Sequence record: OK272487.1
DNA from: Escherichia phage JLBYU09
Strand: one strand, 5' to 3'
Length of the DNA: 48,988 nt
Under the pieces are notes generated by a model, which was not told the origin of the DNA, did no database searches, and was given only the letters and a program-made list of their open reading frames with translations. Positions 2,728 through 46,073 of the stretch are shown piece by piece (the stretch's first letter is position 1; every line of letters begins with the position of its first letter). Position numbers and translations under genes: made by a program.

Positions 2728-3316
2728 TGCTTACTGGTCATTATTCCATCTATTCCATTAATCAGGAATAACAGGAATAACTCATTCGCGATCACCTGGA
2801 TTGGGAGACTTTGAGTTTGGTCAATTTTAATCAAGTGATTAACTTTTTGTGTGGAGGGGATAGAGAAACGCTGCCCTCTTGCATCCTTTCCGACAATCCT
2901 GGCGCGCGCATCTGTTATTTCTGTTCCCCATGTTATCTCAAATAAGCCTCCGCACTTTTAGATAACAGAATCGGCGTTCATCAACAAAAAGAACAAAATA
3001 AAANTNANATATNNACNNANNANATCAATAAGTTAGTTATATATGTATTTATATTTGTTATTTACTGTTGAGCTTGTTCTATGGGTATATGGTGGAGTGG
3101 TATTGTTTGTGGTGATATGTATGTGTGATTGTATATTTTTTAATCAATGGTGATATGTGGTGATTTTTGTATGTATATATATAGGTATGGAGCAATCCTC
3201 CGTCAACCAAGTCAACAAGGTCATTTTTAAAAGAAAAACCAATGACTTAACTGAAGCATTTTGTTATCTTTAAACGCGCCACATGCCAAAAATTGTTATT
3301 AAAACACAAAAATACA

Positions 3317-3381: not shown

Positions 3382-3903
3382 ATGAGCGAAGAAAATATTA
3401 GCACCATGTCGCGTAGTGAGTTCTGCGATATGCTTCGCAGCCTGGGCGCGGCAATTGGTAGCGGTGAGCGTAATGATGTATTCATGCCAGCACTTTTTTT
3501 GTGCGCTAACGTGGAGAACGGCGAAGCAATTACGGCATCGTACATGCGCCAAGTGGTCAACCGTGTGCCAGAAGTAAAGCAAAAAGGCGTGATCAGCATT
3601 AAGCGAAAGGTGACTGATGAGGGTGATGGCTTTGTGTTTACGCTCACTGAAGCCAAAAGCAAGCCTCGCGTTCTGACTGGTGAAGAAATCGACGAGATCG
3701 CAGAAAAGCGCGCAGAGAAGGCGGTAAGCAAAATTCTTAATCACCTGGTAAACGTAATGCCAAATATCACAGACCTGGAAGGCGACAAACTTGCTGGGGC
3801 GTGTGAGGCTATCGGGCGCTACCAGGATATGATTCGTAAACTCGCTGGAGGAAAAGAGGATGAATANNNNATNNNNNNNNNTNTTNAAACTCGAAAACGA
3901 TAA
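3382..3903 (+). CDS. hypothetical protein (C-terminus crosses N-run)
   Basis: Track ORF 3283..3903; start moved to ATG 3382 after AAAGGAG RBS; N-run 3867-3893. Confidence 0.5.
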   Translation: MSEENISTMSRSEFCDMLRSLGAAIGSGERNDVFMPALFLCANVENGEAITASYMRQVVNRVPEVKQKGVISIKRKVTDEGDGFVFTLTEAKSKPRVLTGEEIDEIAEKRAEKAVSKILNHLVNVMPNITDLEGDKLAGACEAIGRYQDMIRKLAGGKEDEXXXXXXXXTRKR

Positions 3904-3969
3904 CCAGGCATAATAAATCACATAGGGCGGCACGGCGTCGCACAGTTAAACCAATCAGGAGAAAGCACC

Positions 3970-4863
3970 ATGTTAAAACTTGCTGACATTAAATTCCCGA
4001 TCACCTTCGAATCTCGCGGCATTGGTCATTACATTTTTACCGATGAAAAAACATGCCATAAGGTTGATATGAATAGCGACAAACTAACCCCATCAACAAT
4101 GGAGATTGAACACTTTATTGATGCACACAATACGCACTACAACGCACTTAAAGACTATGGCTATGCAATGCCAGGCTACACATGTTTGCACTACAAGCCA
4201 TATAAGGGCCAGGTGTTACCAGTGCGCTCACCGGAACGCGCAGAGATTCCGATGGTCAATATGAAAACCTGCGACTACAAAAAGCTGTGGTGCTTAAGTC
4301 TGGACAATATCAAGTATCCGATCACGTTCCACACGACTGGTAAGTCAACGATTCGCTACACATCGCGCGACAATGGCGTTTATAGCGATGGTACGAAATC
4401 AGGGTTGAAAGTTGATTTCTTTGTCAATGGTCACAACAAGTTCAATCCGCACAATGAAAAGGATAAGGTGTACTACGTGGAAGATATTACAAAACACTTG
4501 TTTGGAGAAACACCATTCGGCGGCGGTAAGACGTCAATTCAACAAATCATTGGCGAGGAGATCCACAAGGCAGCCGTTGAAATGAAAGCGCCTGGAGGAT
4601 GGCGTATTGATAAGAGCGCAATTGTCTATCAAGAAATAGTAACGCAGGGCGCAATTGAAGACATGCCACTTGCCGCCACGCTAAAAGGCGTCCAAATTGC
4701 GGATGGCACATGGTTTGAATTAACGGCAAAACCAAAGACTATCGAGATTCATGATGATGTTGTTATTCTTCTGCTTCATTACGGTAGCGCAAAAAACCGT
4801 ACCGTTGCGGGTGAGATTAGCATCAAGCGCGGAACGATGGTTAAGTGGAATGTCAAAGTGTAA
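3970..4863 (+). CDS. hypothetical protein with internal duplication
   Basis: 297 aa; AGGAGA RBS; two related modules (IKFPITFESRG and IKYPITFHTTG); stop TAA abuts the conserved box. Confidence 0.6.
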   Translation: MLKLADIKFPITFESRGIGHYIFTDEKTCHKVDMNSDKLTPSTMEIEHFIDAHNTHYNALKDYGYAMPGYTCLHYKPYKGQVLPVRSPERAEIPMVNMKTCDYKKLWCLSLDNIKYPITFHTTGKSTIRYTSRDNGVYSDGTKSGLKVDFFVNGHNKFNPHNEKDKVYYVEDITKHLFGETPFGGGKTSIQQIIGEEIHKAAVEMKAPGGWRIDKSAIVYQEIVTQGAIEDMPLAATLKGVQIADGTWFELTAKPKTIEIHDDVVILLLHYGSAKNRTVAGEISIKRGTMVKWNVKV

Positions 4864-4936: not shown

Positions 4937-5374
4937 ATGTACATTAGCAAGAAGATGAAATGCGTTTCCGTTAATTATGGTTGTGCTGGAATGTTCAAGC
5001 CTGGCGAAATCTATACGGCGCAAAAACTGAAATCATCAACCGGATCCTTTTACGTGAGCAATAGTAAAGGGCATCGCATGTTCCTGAACGGTGGCGAAGG
5101 CACTAAGGTTATGGCGCACGCTATGGTGATTGCTGAATTTGAGGAAGTGAAAGATGGAACAAATAAGCGCGTTAAGCACAAGTTTATTGATAATCATGGC
5201 GATGCACTTGAGGTATATAAGTTCGGCGATCGCGTGTTTATTGATGGCACATTTGAAGGTGGACGCAGGCCGGATTTTAGATCGATACTCACCATTGACC
5301 AGGTGCGCAAGCTGGCGGATAAGTTAAATGATCTGGCAGATGAAATCGAATACAAGCAAATTCATTTTAATTGA
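4937..5374 (+). CDS. hypothetical protein
   Basis: Track ORF 4874..5374; start moved to ATG 4937 after GAAGGAGA RBS. Confidence 0.55.
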   Translation: MYISKKMKCVSVNYGCAGMFKPGEIYTAQKLKSSTGSFYVSNSKGHRMFLNGGEGTKVMAHAMVIAEFEEVKDGTNKRVKHKFIDNHGDALEVYKFGDRVFIDGTFEGGRRPDFRSILTIDQVRKLADKLNDLADEIEYKQIHFN

Positions 5375-5385
5375 TAGGTTTGATA

Positions 5386-5925
5386 ATGAAAAAATACGAA
5401 TTTGAACTTTGGGGCAGCAAATACCATTTTTCCACGAGCAAGCCGATTGTTATCGTTGACCTGGACGGAACGTTATCAGACGGAACGCATCGCTTACACC
5501 TGCTTCCGACAGAAGATTTGCACCTTACAGAAAGCTGGTCTGAGTTCAATAAGGCGGCTGTTGGCGATTCGCCGATTAAGAGCACGGTTGCAGTGGTTAA
5601 CGGTTTGTGGATGTCAGGATTTGCCATCGTTATCCTGACCGGACGTAGCGATGAAGTGATGGAGGACACCTGCAAATGGATTAACGAAAACGGCATCAAG
5701 TACGATGCGTTAATCATGCGCCGCAAGGAAGACAACCGCAAAGACACAATCATTAAAGAAGAAGTCTTGCGCGCTATCGGCCTAGAAAACATCGTGTGCG
5801 CTTTTGATGATTCGCCGAACGTGGTTAAGCACTTCCGCAGCCTGGGAATCACAACCTATCAGGTCACGGAATACGACAAGCCACATAATCATATCCAATC
5901 GCATGGCGTGGAGGAATTGAAATGA
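5386..5925 (+). CDS. HAD-superfamily phosphatase (polynucleotide 3-phosphatase / nucleotidase-like)
   Basis: HAD motif I VIVDLDGTL, downstream LTGR and FDDS motifs; start taken at ATG 5386. Confidence 0.6.
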   Translation: MKKYEFELWGSKYHFSTSKPIVIVDLDGTLSDGTHRLHLLPTEDLHLTESWSEFNKAAVGDSPIKSTVAVVNGLWMSGFAIVILTGRSDEVMEDTCKWINENGIKYDALIMRRKEDNRKDTIIKEEVLRAIGLENIVCAFDDSPNVVKHFRSLGITTYQVTEYDKPHNHIQSHGVEELK

Positions 5926-6135
5926 TCTGGTTACTTTTAATCTTTGTCACAAGTTACAATTCCGCCGCTATTGAATCGCAAGAGTTCCACGGCGAATCAA
6001 GATGCCAGGAAGCACGANNACNNGNNNNNCNNNANNTCNACGGNCGAATCAAGATGCCAGGAAGCACGAAAACAAGTTGTTCTCCACATGTCAGATAGTG
6101 GGAAAGATGTAACAGCGCTATGCGTTCGTAAATAG
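5922..6135 (+). CDS. small membrane protein (MIWLL family), interrupted by N-run and tandem duplicate
   Basis: ATG 5922 overlaps the upstream stop, GGAGGA RBS; N-terminus MIWLLLIFVTSYNS; frame ambiguous across Ns 6018-6043. Confidence 0.3.
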
Positions 6136-6175
6136 CACTTTTTGCAAAAACACATTATCGGGCTTGCGGTATAGT
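6131..6175 (+). promoter_or_regulatory. conserved-box promoter-like element (box variant TTTTTGCAAAAA, 19-nt spacer, TATAGT)
   Basis: AATAGCACTTTTTGCAAAAA at 6131-6150; TATAGT at 6170-6175 in the loop of GGGCTT...AAGCCC. Confidence 0.5.
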
Positions 6176-6246
6176 AAGCCCATCGACAACAAGCGAGGAT
6201 TAAATCATGGTTAATAAAGTTGAGTTTTTCAAAGCGGTAGACAAGA

Positions 6247-6471
6247 TTGACGGCGCGCCAAGTTTCTTTGCTATCCATTCCATTGACGGCGAAAGACGTT
6301 GCATACAACGTGATTAGTCGAGACGGTATATCAAAACTTAGTGACCTGGTGGGTTATATTGTGGCAAACGGGAAATGTGCATGGCCCGATTCGCCACGAG
6401 AGCCGCGCCGCCGCGACATGCAAAATCCAGTCCTGCTTTACACGCTGGTAATTGAAGGAGTCAACAAATGA
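6247..6471 (+). CDS. hypothetical protein (5-prime end uncertain, possible frameshift)
   Basis: Track ORF with TTG start; an RBS-preceded ATG at 6207 opens a 36-aa ORF in another frame; 3-prime end is coupled (ATGA) to the next gene. Confidence 0.35.
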   Translation: MTARQVSLLSIPLTAKDVAYNVISRDGISKLSDLVGYIVANGKCAWPDSPREPRRRDMQNPVLLYTLVIEGVNK

Positions 6472-6653
6472 TTTGGTTACTTGTATTTTTGGTGGTTTTC
6501 TTTTATATTTCAGGCTTATTCATCTTCCGTGCGCTGGTGAAAACATGCGATTGCACGGATAAAGATCATCCTCTTGTTCTGATGTTCTGGTTTGTGTGGT
6601 TTTGGGTTGCGCTTTATCAGATTGTACGGGATAAAAGCGGATTCAAGTGGTGA
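6468..6653 (+). CDS. small membrane protein (MIWLL family)
   Basis: 61 aa; N-terminus MIWLLVFLVVFFYISGLFIF; GAAGGAG RBS; paralog of the 5922 gene. Confidence 0.55.
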   Translation: MIWLLVFLVVFFYISGLFIFRALVKTCDCTDKDHPLVLMFWFVWFWVALYQIVRDKSGFKW

Positions 6654-6847
6654 TTCTTACTATAGCGCATTCACGCAGTGCGCTATGTTGAGATAACAAC
6701 ATGAGATCATGAAGATGCGAAACTTCGAAAAAATCGTATCCAAAAAGAAGCGATACAGCTACCACGAGCACCAAGAGATGAATCAACGCTATCGCAATAA
6801 GCGCCAGCGCAAAGGTAAACATTCCGGTAAACATGGAGAAAATCAAT

Positions 6848-7438
6848 ATGAAACGCGACATTATCATTCTTAACGGACCGCCAGGAGTTGGCAAAGATAC
6901 GCTTGCGGCATACTTAACGGGTCATCGTTACGCAGCGGTTAAAGCGTCATTTAAACAGCCTATGTTCGATATTGCATTCTCCATGCTTGGCGTTTACCGA
7001 TATGACGAGTTCATTGATCTGTATAACGACCGTGAGCAGAAAGAAAAGCCTCAAGCAATCTTGCAAGGTAAGTCTCCGCGACAATTCATGATCTGGATTA
7101 GCGAAGAAGTCATGAAGCCAGCTTTTGGCGAGCAATATTTTGGGAATCGCATGGTTGAGCAAGTACACGAGATGTACAGAGATTTAGCTGTTGTAATTAG
7201 TGATGGCGGATTCCCTGAAGAAATCAAGCCGCTCGTTAAGGCAGGCCATGAAGTTCACATTTGCCGACTGCATCGCGAAGGATTCACGTTTGATGGCGAT
7301 TCACGAAACTATATTGACCTGAGCGGATACCATCACCGAGTCAAGCATTACGACTTCACAATGATTGATGGCGAGCCAGAAAAGACTGTTGACGAGATCA
7401 TCAAAGCGGTGCAGTGGAAACACACAAAGATTGAATAG
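6848..7438 (+). CDS. P-loop nucleotide kinase (dNMP-kinase-like)
   Basis: Walker A LNGPPGVGKDT with GKDT and a GKSP motif, recalled as resembling T4 gp1 dNMP kinase; start moved to ATG 6848 after GGAG RBS; stop TAG inside the conserved box. Confidence 0.55.
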   Translation: MKRDIIILNGPPGVGKDTLAAYLTGHRYAAVKASFKQPMFDIAFSMLGVYRYDEFIDLYNDREQKEKPQAILQGKSPRQFMIWISEEVMKPAFGEQYFGNRMVEQVHEMYRDLAVVISDGGFPEEIKPLVKAGHEVHICRLHREGFTFDGDSRNYIDLSGYHHRVKHYDFTMIDGEPEKTVDEIIKAVQWKHTKIE

Positions 7439-7478
7439 CACGAATTGCTAAAAGCGGGGCGCAATGCCTCGCTATAAT
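7434..7478 (+). promoter_or_regulatory. conserved-box promoter-like element (box, 19-nt spacer, TATAAT)
   Basis: AATAGCACGAATTGCTAAAA at 7434-7453; TATAAT at 7473-7478. Confidence 0.5.
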
Positions 7479-7508
7479 GCAAACACCAATCAACGAGAGG
7501 AAATCATC

Positions 7509-7910
7509 ATGGTAGAGTTAAACGACATTCGCGTTGGAACAAAATTTCGCGTAACCTGGGCAGATGAATATTGCGGCGTTAGCAAGGGCCAGGTTGTTAC
7601 TGTGGATAGTATTTATCGCGGATGCAGCAAAGACTTTCGCCGCCCACGCATCAAGAATGGCTATATCATTACTCGCCGTTTTGGATTTGATCATTATTGC
7701 GTAGTGGCGACTCAAGGAGTTTTGATTGAGCTTAAGCGAATCAGCGATCATCGCGGCTGTCATGTTAAGACAATGAAGACACCATCTCAGCGATCGCGAT
7801 ACGATGCGCGCAGGATGCGCAGGCTTGCACGAAACGCGATCAAGTTCAAAAAGCCTGGTGGTAACTTTTACCGAATGTACAAAGGGATTGCGCGAAATGC
7901 TGGAAAATAA
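7509..7910 (+). CDS. hypothetical protein, basic C-terminus
   Basis: Track ORF 7464..7910; start moved to ATG 7509 after GAGAGGAAA RBS. Confidence 0.5.
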   Translation: MVELNDIRVGTKFRVTWADEYCGVSKGQVVTVDSIYRGCSKDFRRPRIKNGYIITRRFGFDHYCVVATQGVLIELKRISDHRGCHVKTMKTPSQRSRYDARRMRRLARNAIKFKKPGGNFYRMYKGIARNAGK

Positions 7911-8028
7911 CAACAACGCAACCAATCCAAAGCCGCCATTTGATTTTCATGAAATCATGATTGTGTTATTCTTGATTCTCTTAGTTATTTATTCAGTGAG
8001 GGCCGCACTATGGTTTTTAACGCACTAA
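7897..8028 (+). CDS. small membrane protein (43 aa)
   Basis: Internal ATG of track ORF 7804..8028 overlapping the upstream stop; hydrophobic IMIVLFLILLVIYSV. Confidence 0.35.
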   Translation: MLENNNNATNPKPPFDFHEIMIVLFLILLVIYSVRAALWFLTH

Positions 8029-8491: not shown

Positions 8492-8749
8492 ATGGCTAAA
8501 AGCAATCGTAAAATGTTGATTAACGCATTCGAAAAGGCAGCGCTTGAGCGTGGCTGGAATGACTCATTTCACACAGCAAACTGTATCCGCCGTTACGGAT
8601 TCAAGAATTGCCGCTCCTGGGCGCGTCAAATGGCTTCATGGTATGATCTTGATGCGCATTACCTTGATATGGATTGCGCCCTTGTTGAAATGATTGAGCA
8701 GGCCGCATTAGAGGATNGANCANNNNCGCANTNNNNNNTNGACCATTAA
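8492..8749 (+). CDS. hypothetical protein (3-prime end crosses N-run)
   Basis: AAAGGAGGAAGC RBS; Ns 8717-8738; true stop may be 8800-8802. Confidence 0.5.
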   Translation: MAKSNRKMLINAFEKAALERGWNDSFHTANCIRRYGFKNCRSWARQMASWYDLDAHYLDMDCALVEMIEQAALEDXXXXXXXXDH

Positions 8750-9096: not shown

Positions 9097-9328
9097 TCAC
9101 GATTAACCTGTCAGAGCAGCANGCGNGNATNATGNNNGNNNNCAGGCAACGGTTAAAATCCCTGATACGGTAGCGCGTGAAGTTTTTAACCAGCTTGAAC
9201 ACGCATTTGTTCCTGTTGGCACTGATCAGGCAGAAACAGCGGCTTGGTTCGGAGAGAACGGATACAGAGATCAGCAAGTCGAAAACTGGAAGCGCAAAAA
9301 CGAGACTGCGGAGGAGGCCGGATTATGA
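9093..9328 (+). CDS. hypothetical protein (interrupted by N-run)
   Basis: ATG 9093 overlaps the upstream stop; Ns 9121-9143 shift the apparent frame; ends TGA 9326-9328, overlapping the next ATG. Confidence 0.3.
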
Positions 9329-45866: not shown

Positions 45867-46073
45867 TCAAATCTTGAAAGCTGTTTCCGCTATAATCATT
45901 CTCGACAAGAATGTAAGNACNTNTCTTCNTNNNATCNNNNANNNNNNNNTNTNNTCNTAACGATTTATTTCAAACGTGCTACCATCTTCTCTTGTCGCAG
46001 TTCCTTTGTCGTTGAAAACATCAAAAGTTACATTGATGATTTTTGTTTCTTTCTTTGTTACTTTGATAGCCAT
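45867..46073 (-). CDS. hypothetical protein (interrupted by N-run)
   Basis: Track ORF 45867..46088; start moved to ATG 46073 after GAGGA RBS; Ns 45918-45958. Confidence 0.4.
   Translation of the reverse strand: MAIKVTKKETKIINVTFDVFNDKGTATREDGSTFEINRXXXXXXXXXXXRXXLTFLSRMIIAETAFKI

Follow-up and report, generated by a model that had tools for sequence, protein, structure and literature searches.

A Pnkp-type phosphatase gene linked to a dNMP kinase gene in Escherichia phage JLBYU09 and its relatives, with a likely part for both in nucleotide recycling

Escherichia phage JLBYU09, a T1-like Hanrivervirus of the Drexlerviridae, encodes a HAD phosphatase and a P-loop kinase upstream of its terminase genes, an arrangement that raises the question of what these two enzymes do and whether they do it together. 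The initial annotation of the window (the whole 48,988-nucleotide stretch of record OK272487.1) proposed that they could cooperate, either as a split polynucleotide kinase/phosphatase that counters tRNA or DNA nicking or as a dNMP kinase and nucleotidase in nucleotide salvage. The pair itself is already known. Both genes are ordinary and catalogued in T1-like coliphages; their annotation goes back to phage T1 (2004), where the block likewise lies upstream of the terminase genes, and papers of 2024 to 2026 discuss them. The features that bear on the question are listed below, with counterparts in Escherichia phage JLBYU41, which is 99.9% identical to JLBYU09 over the 3 kb searched.

5386..5925, plus strand: predicted stand-alone Pnkp-type HAD phosphatase, 179 aa (Pfam PF25109, PHROG 415)
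5922..6098, plus strand: small ORF with a hydrophobic N-terminus (counterpart JLBYU41 CDS 6756-6917)
6283..6471, plus strand: small soluble ORF, 62 aa (counterpart JLBYU41 CDS 7065-7253)
6468..6653, plus strand: small membrane protein, 61 aa, two predicted helices (PHROG 9755, 1.7e-27)
6709..6873, plus strand: small, very basic ORF, 54 aa (PHROG 8176, 1.7e-5)
6848..7438, plus strand: predicted phage dNMP kinase (DNK), 196 aa (PHROG 139, 6.7e-51)
43473..44588, plus strand: HTH plus metallophosphoesterase (MPE), 'DNA repair exonuclease' (PHROG 704, 1.9e-151)

The phosphatase and kinase reading frames are both real, far above chance expectation, and the motifs from which the initial annotation started are present: 5386-5925 carries VIVDLDGTLS, with the DxDGT aspartates at D25 and D27, and GPPGVGKDT lies in the reading frame 6833-7438 (201 aa). 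The spacing of about 900 bp is also correct, with 907 bp between the end of the HAD ORF at 5925 and the start of the kinase ORF at 6833. Translation of the kinase more likely begins at 6848, where GGAG stands 9 nt upstream and the start agrees with that of most homologues; the alternative start at 6833 is the one annotated in GenBank relatives. The description of the intervening genes as small membrane-protein genes survives in part. It fits only 6468-6653 clearly (the Kyte-Doolittle 19-residue mean peaks at 2.73); 5922-6098 has a hydrophobic N-terminus, 6283-6471 is soluble, a Kyte-Doolittle scan having found no hydrophobic segment in it, and 6709-6873 is very basic and runs into the start of the kinase gene. 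ORF 5922-6098 starts with a 4-bp overlap at the HAD stop codon and is disturbed by a run of Ns and a duplication of about 52 bp. Predicted promoters and terminators between 3000 and 8200 were no more numerous than in shuffled sequence.

Homology identifies the P-loop protein as a phage dNMP kinase, predicted to be of broad specificity. Its identity is 98% to the DNK of phage KarlJaspers (QXV82329), 47% to R1DNK of phage Rao1 (E 5e-59 over 187 aligned positions) and 47% to T1 gp62; its PHROG is also that of T5 Dnk, and tblastn finds homologues in 1462 phage records. With R1DNK, KarlJaspers DNK, T5 Dnk and T4 gp1 it has in common a GxGKDT P-loop, its length and full-length homology. Within the P-loop, G15, K16, D17 and T18 are invariant among 37 homologues, and K16 aligns with K15 of R1DNK, whose replacement by alanine abolishes triggering of the Kongming defence system. 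Enzymatic activity and in vivo function have been established by others, in orthologues: R1DNK phosphorylates dAMP, dGMP, dCMP and dTMP in vitro, and co-expression of KarlJaspers DNK with KomABC results in Kongming toxicity. From these assayed orthologues, the JLBYU09 kinase is predicted to phosphorylate dNMPs.

Structural comparison is consistent with this assignment. The AF2 model of the kinase is confident (pLDDT 92.8), and its best Foldseek match in the PDB is the T4 dNMP kinase 1DEK (TMq 0.70), after which come phosphomevalonate kinases and adenylate kinases. Alignment of the kinase family with T4 gp1 by hhalign covers 73 columns (E 2e-5), and the likeness extends past the P-loop to include the LNGKSP motif, although the two proteins are about 15% identical even with gp1 as the closest solved fold. 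The DVRFxNE motif of T5 Dnk is missing from the JLBYU09 protein, which has SDGGFPEE instead. No Pfam or NCBIfam model scored above threshold for the kinase, and sequence and profile searches against PDB sequences were uninformative since they returned P-loop matches only, such as McrB and AAA+ proteins. The kinase half of the salvage proposal in the initial annotation proves largely right in view of the identities to KarlJaspers DNK and R1DNK.

The HAD protein is, judged by its motifs, a stand-alone phosphatase domain of the Pnkp type with every catalytic motif intact, and we regard it as a putative phosphomonoesterase, T4 Pnkp-like and competent for catalysis. It scores 80 bits on Pfam PF25109 (HAD_PNKP), where the cut-off is 27.6 (2.4e-22; profile positions 3-140 of 143). 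Identity is 30% across the full phosphatase domain of a T4-like Pnkp (E 8e-17), 55% with T1 gp64 and 58% with Rao1 gp57; homologues occur in 3405 phage records by tblastn. Seven residues (D25, D27, G28, R87, D120, K124 and D142) are invariant among 72 homologues and three more (T85, G86 and D141) are conserved in 70 of these, the catalytic residues aligning with D164, D166, S210, G211, R212, D252, K256, D275 and D276 of T4-like Pnkp. The HAD fold and the motifs DxDGT, (S/T)GR, RKD...K and DD are thereby held in common with the C-terminal 3'-phosphatase domain of T4 Pnkp (1LTQ, 2IA5, 5UJ0) and with Capnocytophaga Pnkp1. The HAD model, built on the shallower of two HAD alignments, has a pLDDT of 73; its core is confident, but residues 29-65 and 162-179 are poorly modelled. 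The first 11 Foldseek matches of this model in the PDB all fall on the T4 Pnkp phosphatase (5uj0, 2ia5) and Pnkp1, with E-values down to 1.7e-8. Unlike T4 Pnkp, the JLBYU09 protein has an additional N-terminal beta-hairpin and a conserved insert, HRLHLLPTxDLHLTESWSEFN, where the model is of low confidence. It is also unfused to a Pnk kinase domain, and in relatives the HAD is coupled or fused to a dNMP kinase, phosphatase first.

Databases label this gene 'polynucleotide kinase' or 'kinase-phosphatase' despite the missing kinase domain. Its 179 residues cover only positions 158-292 of 295 in PHROG 505 and Pnkp residues 151-298, and the Pnk kinase domain, sought in the ORF with PHROG 505 and the Pnkp alignment, is not present. 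On these alignments the label 'polynucleotide kinase' is a misnomer, a widespread one that has its source in PHROG 415, the family that also includes T5 Dmp. Major concepts are unaffected, but relabelling the HAD and defining the role of a Pnkp-type phosphatase beside a dNMP kinase would give a clearer picture of dNTP supply in small phages that encode neither a polymerase nor nucleotide-synthesis genes of their own.

A HAD of the Pnkp end-healing type invites the first of the two proposals, in which nicked DNA or cleaved tRNA would be healed for ligation by two enzymes, the P-loop protein acting as the kinase of 5'-OH polynucleotide ends and the HAD taking off 3'-phosphates. The natural HAD-kinase fusions described below run phosphatase then kinase, the domain order of mammalian PNKP, and DNK adjoins a DNA ligase in some phages. 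The kinase itself argues against such a division of labour. Its likeness to T4-like Pnkp is confined to 27 P-loop columns in hhalign, and its top 50 fold matches contain T4 gp1, phosphomevalonate kinases and adenylate kinases but no T4 Pnk structure. In T4 Pnk the general base after strand 2 is Asp35; no acidic residue is conserved there among the kinase homologues (D41 is D, E, N, K, Q or G), and the invariant residue nearby, K36, is basic. Its orthologues, moreover, are proven dNMP kinases. From the sequence comparisons we conclude that the kinase is very unlikely to be a polynucleotide kinase. As a further difference from the T4 Pnkp system, the annotation of the close relative egaa (50 kb examined) includes no RNA or DNA ligase, which makes repair of tRNA or DNA ends unlikely, and the tRNA-repair reading was dropped on this ground. 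The split-enzyme proposal, and with it a role against nicking defences, therefore seems very improbable to us. The PNK that appears in the Retron-Eco2 paper is a laboratory reagent only.

Cooperation between the two genes is better founded. Of 80 related IMG/VR loci, 70 have both genes on one strand with HAD upstream, and in 26 of these 70 the two reading frames abut or overlap; the order of the pair stays constant between genera while its position in the genome changes. The overlap is 4 bp in phage Sushi. Natural HAD-DNK fusions occur in two divergent proteins with a conserved linker in common (P0257 and P0263); the P0257 fusion was found on three contigs, two of them from different samples, in an unrelated background (a 60.8-kb contig with 55% G+C). 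Synteny and fusions together support the earlier proposal that the two genes act together. They also weigh against the reading that HAD and DNK are functionally unrelated accessory genes, neighbours merely through shared T1-like descent, since pair order and strand are kept despite shifting genome position, the genes overlap in Sushi and fusions exist in an unrelated phage background. That reading can point to the syntenic loci being mostly those of related siphoviruses of 44-53 kb, to the four unrelated small ORFs that separate the genes in JLBYU09, and to the occurrence of DNK alone in several other phage families: no HAD of this type lies within 8 kb of DNK in T7-like phages, Vequintavirus, Chaseviridae or Melnykvirinae. 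The partnership is thus not obligatory, but we consider simple co-inheritance of unrelated genes improbable.

The metallophosphoesterase may be the third member of such a module. In JLBYU09 it is unlinked to HAD and DNK, but it adjoins them in many relatives, with the order MPE-HAD-DNK in 25 of the 80 loci and also in Sushi, Rao1 and PsgS01F, and an MPE homologue lies immediately downstream of the P0257 fusion gene (in L097). The JLBYU09 protein is 64% identical to Sushi gp37 and gives a weak match to Pfam Metallophos. An MPE found beside DNK in a further set of contigs (L041-type) was considered as a member of the same Drexlerviridae family and dropped, as it has no BLAST similarity to it.

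For the substrate of the HAD, T5 Dmp offers one comparison. Dmp, a 244-aa protein encoded in the pre-early region of T5 and expressed ahead of DNK, is a proven 5'-dNMPase and a proven anti-Kongming factor, affects Clover sensing as well, and co-occurs with DNK in phages; its published sequence contains the HAD DxDGT motif. The JLBYU09 HAD may accordingly be its analogue, a 5'-dNMP phosphatase, perhaps one that prefers particular dNMPs or non-canonical ones such as dIMP or dUMP, that edits the dNMP pool, blunts Kongming and Clover, or both. By profile comparison the two proteins may be distant relatives. They share PHROG 415 (7e-66 for the HAD, 3.6e-57 for Dmp), a DLDGT...HR motif, the Dmp-like N-terminal signature 'DGTxxDxxHR', a DNK in the same genome and 72 hhalign columns (E 4e-6), and Drexlerviridae-type HADs are the best phmmer matches to T5 Dmp among 8606 ORFs, albeit below threshold (E 0.007-0.06). 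On the shared PHROG and N-terminal signature, the HAD may have a 5'-nucleotidase activity.

Overall, the HAD is far nearer to the Pnkp phosphatase (51.7 bits by HMM) than to the Dmps (17-19 bits; T5 Dmp 17.6), and BLAST aligns it with T5 Dmp in motif I alone. Searching the same 8606 ORFs with jackhmmer from T5 Dmp at 1e-3 recruited nothing, and tblastn with T5 Dmp gave no Drexlerviridae record among the matches listed (40 shown; these, like the tally of host genera, belong to T5-like phages). Given the failed BLAST link and the empty jackhmmer search, the published 'Dmp homologue' set probably omits this clade. Gene arrangement differs too: the JLBYU09 phosphatase gene lies just upstream of DNK, whereas T5 keeps Dmp and DNK apart in time. 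A general 5'-dNMPase co-translated or fused with a dNMP kinase would, we reason, drive a futile cycle that wastes ATP. The behaviour of Rao1 points the same way. This phage carries the 58%-identical HAD beside DNK, yet dAMP rises 2- to 3-fold during its infection, and it is sensitive to Kongming and needs T5 Dmp in trans for its rescue, which argues that the orthologous HAD, in contrast to Dmp, does not protect against Kongming. By analogy with Rao1, the JLBYU09 HAD probably does not hydrolyse 5'-dNMPs in bulk as T5 Dmp does, and we consider the analogue reading as a whole unlikely.

We propose instead, as the probable explanation, that DNK and HAD serve one nucleotide-recycling pathway in which the HAD acts on 3'-phosphates. 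DNK, with ATP, would convert dNMPs, presumably released by DNA breakdown, to dNDPs; host Ndk would then turn these into dNTPs, with which the host polymerase replicates the phage genome. The HAD would most likely serve to strip 3'-phosphates from DNA ends, oligonucleotides or nucleotides, yielding usable 5'-dNMPs; the scheme takes for granted that infection generates 3'-phosphorylated breakdown products. The HTH-metallophosphoesterase 'exonuclease' probably belongs to the pathway as well in relatives. Family identity, motifs, linkage and fusion are observed; beyond them, we infer the HAD substrate and the pathway logic. A more ambitious version, which we offer tentatively, is that the Pnkp-type HAD, DNK and HTH-metallophosphoesterase form a dedicated three-enzyme 'DNA-to-dNTP' module, in some cases with HAD and DNK fused. 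Its HAD would have a specificity undescribed for phage HADs (for example, for 3'-phosphates of degradation products or for non-canonical dNMPs), and the module as a whole would shape the visibility of the phage to nucleotide-sensing defences such as Kongming and Clover.

T7, another small phage that recycles host DNA, offers a parallel to the kinase step. T7 gp1.7 shares with the JLBYU09 kinase the role of dNMP phosphorylation; it is not known to contain a P-loop or to be related to the kinase in sequence. The assignment of the kinase is further supported by the company that its homologues keep in other phage families, where they lie among genes of nucleotide metabolism: one takes the gene-1.7 position in the T7-like Salmonella phage C2, one adjoins thymidylate synthase and ribonucleotide reductase in a Vequintavirus, and in Chaseviridae the homologue sits between DNA ligase and dUTPase. 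The benefit of salvage appears to be conditional, as Rao1 deleted for dnk showed no measurable loss of fitness under laboratory conditions. The practical relevance of the kinase lies in the triggering of Kongming by phage DNKs, from which we predict that JLBYU09 is Kongming-sensitive and could escape through loss of dnk.

Both open reading frames proposed in the initial annotation as a phosphatase-kinase pair, one with a DxDGT-type HAD motif and one with GPPGVGKDT, are present on the + strand, 907 bp apart when the kinase is read from 6833. A kinase start at 6848 (196 aa) is likelier, because GGAG lies 9 nt upstream and most homologues share this start. Four small ORFs lie in between. Their description as membrane-protein genes holds for one but fails as a blanket label, since the other three comprise a soluble product, a very basic one and one that is hydrophobic at its N-terminus.

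5386-5925, + strand: predicted HAD phosphatase, 179 aa, motif VIVDLDGTLS
6468-6653: clear two-helix membrane protein
6833-7438, + strand: P-loop kinase, long form, 201 aa, motif GPPGVGKDT
43473-44588, + strand: "DNA repair exonuclease" (MPE), PHROG 704, HTH plus divergent metallophosphoesterase

We conclude that the P-loop protein is a deoxynucleoside monophosphate kinase (DNK), not a polynucleotide kinase, because it matches PHROG 139 ("deoxynucleoside monophosphate kinase", 6.7e-51), resembles T4 gp1 in fold and profile, and has tested orthologues, this published evidence being decisive. No Pfam or NCBIfam model exceeded threshold, and PDB sequences matched only at the P-loop. The AlphaFold2 model (alignment of 37 homologues; pLDDT 92.8) finds T4 dNMP kinase as its best PDB match (1DEK, TMq 0.70); phosphomevalonate kinases and adenylate kinases come next. 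Profile comparison aligned 73 columns with T4 gp1, including the shared LNGKSP motif (gp1 sequence 100% identical to T4 records). Clustered at 50%, the family numbers 4137 representatives. The KomABC (Kongming) defence system is set off by phage DNKs, KarlJaspers protein QXV82329 triggered toxicity when tested, and the model enzyme of that study, Rao1 gp58 (R1DNK), phosphorylates dAMP, dGMP, dCMP and dTMP and is inactivated by K15A (bioRxiv 10.1101/2024.12.20.629578). The window kinase shares 98% identity with the KarlJaspers gene product and, over the full length, 47% with R1DNK (E 5e-59), with K16 aligned to K15 of R1DNK; T1 gp62 is a further homologue (47% identity). The earlier suggestion of a dNMP kinase is thus largely borne out. 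The competing suggestion, that the HAD and P-loop proteins form a split polynucleotide kinase/phosphatase (Pnkp), we regard as highly improbable: the kinase profile aligned only 27 columns with T4-like Pnkp, all P-loop, and T4 Pnk structures are absent from the best 50 PDB fold matches of the model.

The likeness to Pnkp resides in the HAD protein, which scores 80 bits against Pfam HAD_PNKP (cut-off 27.6), matches PHROG 415 (7e-66) and shares 30% identity with a T4-like Pnkp over the full length of the latter's phosphatase domain (residues 151-298; E 8e-17). Across 72 homologues D25, D27, R87, D120, K124 and D142 never vary, 70 of the 72 retain T85, G86 and D141, and all nine residues pair with their Pnkp counterparts. 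Its model, confident in the core and poor in the insert (29-65) and tail, best matches the T4 Pnkp phosphatase and Pnkp1. The protein lacks a kinase domain, which makes the database name "polynucleotide kinase" a misnomer. Matching records call the HAD gene "putative kinase-phosphatase" or "polynucleotide kinase", and the P-loop gene "putative ATP-binding" or "P-loop NTPase protein". PHROG 415 itself is named "polynucleotide kinase", yet T5 Dmp and the T1-like phages' stand-alone HADs, which belong to it, all lack a kinase domain; many T5-like dmp genes in GenBank now bear this wrong name.

T5 Dmp has been proven to act as a deoxynucleoside 5'-monophosphatase and to counter Kongming (bioRxiv 10.1101/2024.12.20.629578). 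Its published sequence is also a DxDGT HAD and also falls in PHROG 415 (3.6e-57), and therefore the catalytic signature cannot decide between 3'-phosphate and 5'-dNMP specificity. However, BLAST aligns Dmp with the window HAD at motif I only, hhalign recovers 72 columns (E 4e-6), and an HMM of the Drexlerviridae clade gives Dmps 17-19 bits versus 52 for Pnkp. Drexlerviridae records are absent from the tblastn matches listed for T5 Dmp, where the individual records and the tally of host genera are those of T5-like phages. Judged by sequence, the HAD clade appears distinct from, and remotely related to, T5 Dmp.

In the annotation of a close relative, nucleases are present (exonuclease VIII, a VRR-NUC protein and MPE), and DNA polymerase, ligase and any credible enzyme of nucleotide synthesis are absent; a "ribonucleoside-triphosphate reductase" label on one small gene of the virion-structural block looks like a misannotation. 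In the best-supported pathway, DNK would act on dNMPs released by DNA degradation and, via host Ndk, replenish dNTPs, as proposed for Rao1 DNK (bioRxiv 10.1101/2024.12.20.629578) and, at the level of annotation, in the KanT1 paper (PMC13164509) for Drexlerviridae. We favour a role for HAD as a Pnkp-like 3'-phosphatase that would make breakdown products usable, because its similarity to Pnkp far exceeds that to Dmp and because a general 5'-dNMPase co-translated or fused with a dNMP kinase would presumably be futile. Rao1 argues in the same direction, since its HAD (gp57, 58% identical to that of the window) is encoded next to DNK, dAMP builds up during infection, and the phage is Kongming-sensitive, protection requiring T5 Dmp in trans (bioRxiv 10.1101/2024.12.20.629578). 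A Dmp-like pool editor or anti-defence factor, which the shared signature would allow, is on these grounds rather unlikely.

Of 80 IMG/VR loci that the kinase profile picked out, 70 have HAD upstream of DNK in the same orientation. In 26 of these 70 the two ORFs adjoin or overlap, in 9 they lie 26-250 nt apart, and the other 35 resemble the window in having 0.6-2.1 kb of small ORFs between them. The overlap is 4 bp in Klebsiella phage Sushi; in T1 a homing HNH endonuclease gene intervenes. The order is constant although genome position varies, the pair preceding the terminase genes in T1 and Hanrivervirus and lying between the "DNA repair exonuclease" and holin genes in Webervirus, Rao1 and PsgS01F. 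Several phage families have DNK without this HAD within 8 kb, and the partnership is therefore frequent, not obligatory. Such solitary DNKs would fit two genes with no functional relationship, which the linkage elsewhere makes improbable.

Two divergent proteins fusing HAD_PNKP to DNK, P0257 (403 aa) and P0263 (461 aa), turned up among 1.84 billion representatives. HAD_PNKP is N-terminal and DNK C-terminal in both, the opposite of the T4 Pnkp domain order, and the linker of ~50-100 residues contains a conserved GPELHG motif. P0257 is encoded on three contigs, two read from different samples; its carrier is an unrelated contig of 60.8 kb with 55% G+C. Directly after its gene lies an MPE homologue (42% identity to Sushi gp37). 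MPE is the immediate HAD-DNK neighbour in many relatives, and the order MPE-HAD-DNK occurs in 25 of the 80 loci; in the window MPE is unlinked from the pair.

L097 8001-9212: P0257 fusion gene
L097 9340-10500, L003 1344-2474 and L095 36693-37826: MPE homologues

The fusions and the trio support a real module with a putative phosphatase step. In Aeromonas phage Atoyac13 and L041-type contigs, the metallophosphatases adjoining DNK are different ones, not BLAST-similar to MPE.

The HAD-DNK finding is already known, because both products have counterparts 100% identical at the protein level (tblastn) in Escherichia phage JLBYU41 (OK272479; Drexlerviridae, Tempevirinae, Hanrivervirus), the T1 genome record already annotates the HAD, the DNK family is characterised biochemically and genetically (bioRxiv 10.1101/2024.12.20.629578), and the pairing has been noted in print. 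In megablast, window 5000-8000 is 99.9% identical to JLBYU41 and 92-94% identical to many other T1-like coliphages. Our additions are modest: the kinase is placed firmly as a DNK and the "polynucleotide kinase" label corrected, the HAD clade is set apart from T5 Dmp, and the fusions and trio point to a module.

Many close HAD homologues (P0121, P0123, P0124 and others) are called as 236-237 aa, with an N-terminus ~57 residues longer than the 179-aa form; the window frame upstream of the ORF is closed just before 5371. Nine patches of the window are N or partly N (1481-1482, 1544-1569, 3004-3023, 3867-3886, 6018-6044, 8717-8740, 9122-9142, 37122-37199 and 45918-45957). A ~52-bp insertion relative to JLBYU41 at 6018-6069 duplicates CGAATCAAGATGCCAGGAAGCACGA around an N patch and throws a small ORF (5922-6098) out of frame; an artefact of assembly or masking seems likelier than biology.

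In other phage families, DNK homologues keep company with genes of nucleotide metabolism. The Vequintavirus homologue adjoins thymidylate synthase and ribonucleotide reductase genes, and that of Chaseviridae lies between DNA ligase and dUTPase genes. The product of T7 gene 1.7 is a nucleotide kinase that lacks a P-loop. In the T7-like Salmonella phage C2, a P-loop homologue (L087 7998-8564; 44% identity to the window kinase) sits between the DNA ligase and gp2 genes, the gene-1.7 position of T7, and looks like a non-orthologous replacement. Some homologues carry N- or C-terminal extensions of ~100-130 residues that have no Pfam match (L090 7689-8582 of Escherichia phage FH3; P0266, P0278, P0281, P0351 and P0356). 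In Yersinia phage PYps3T (Chaseviridae; L004), two genes annotated as dNMP kinase, 2736-3260 and 3923-4624, flank the DNA ligase gene, and homology to the window kinase is confined to the second.
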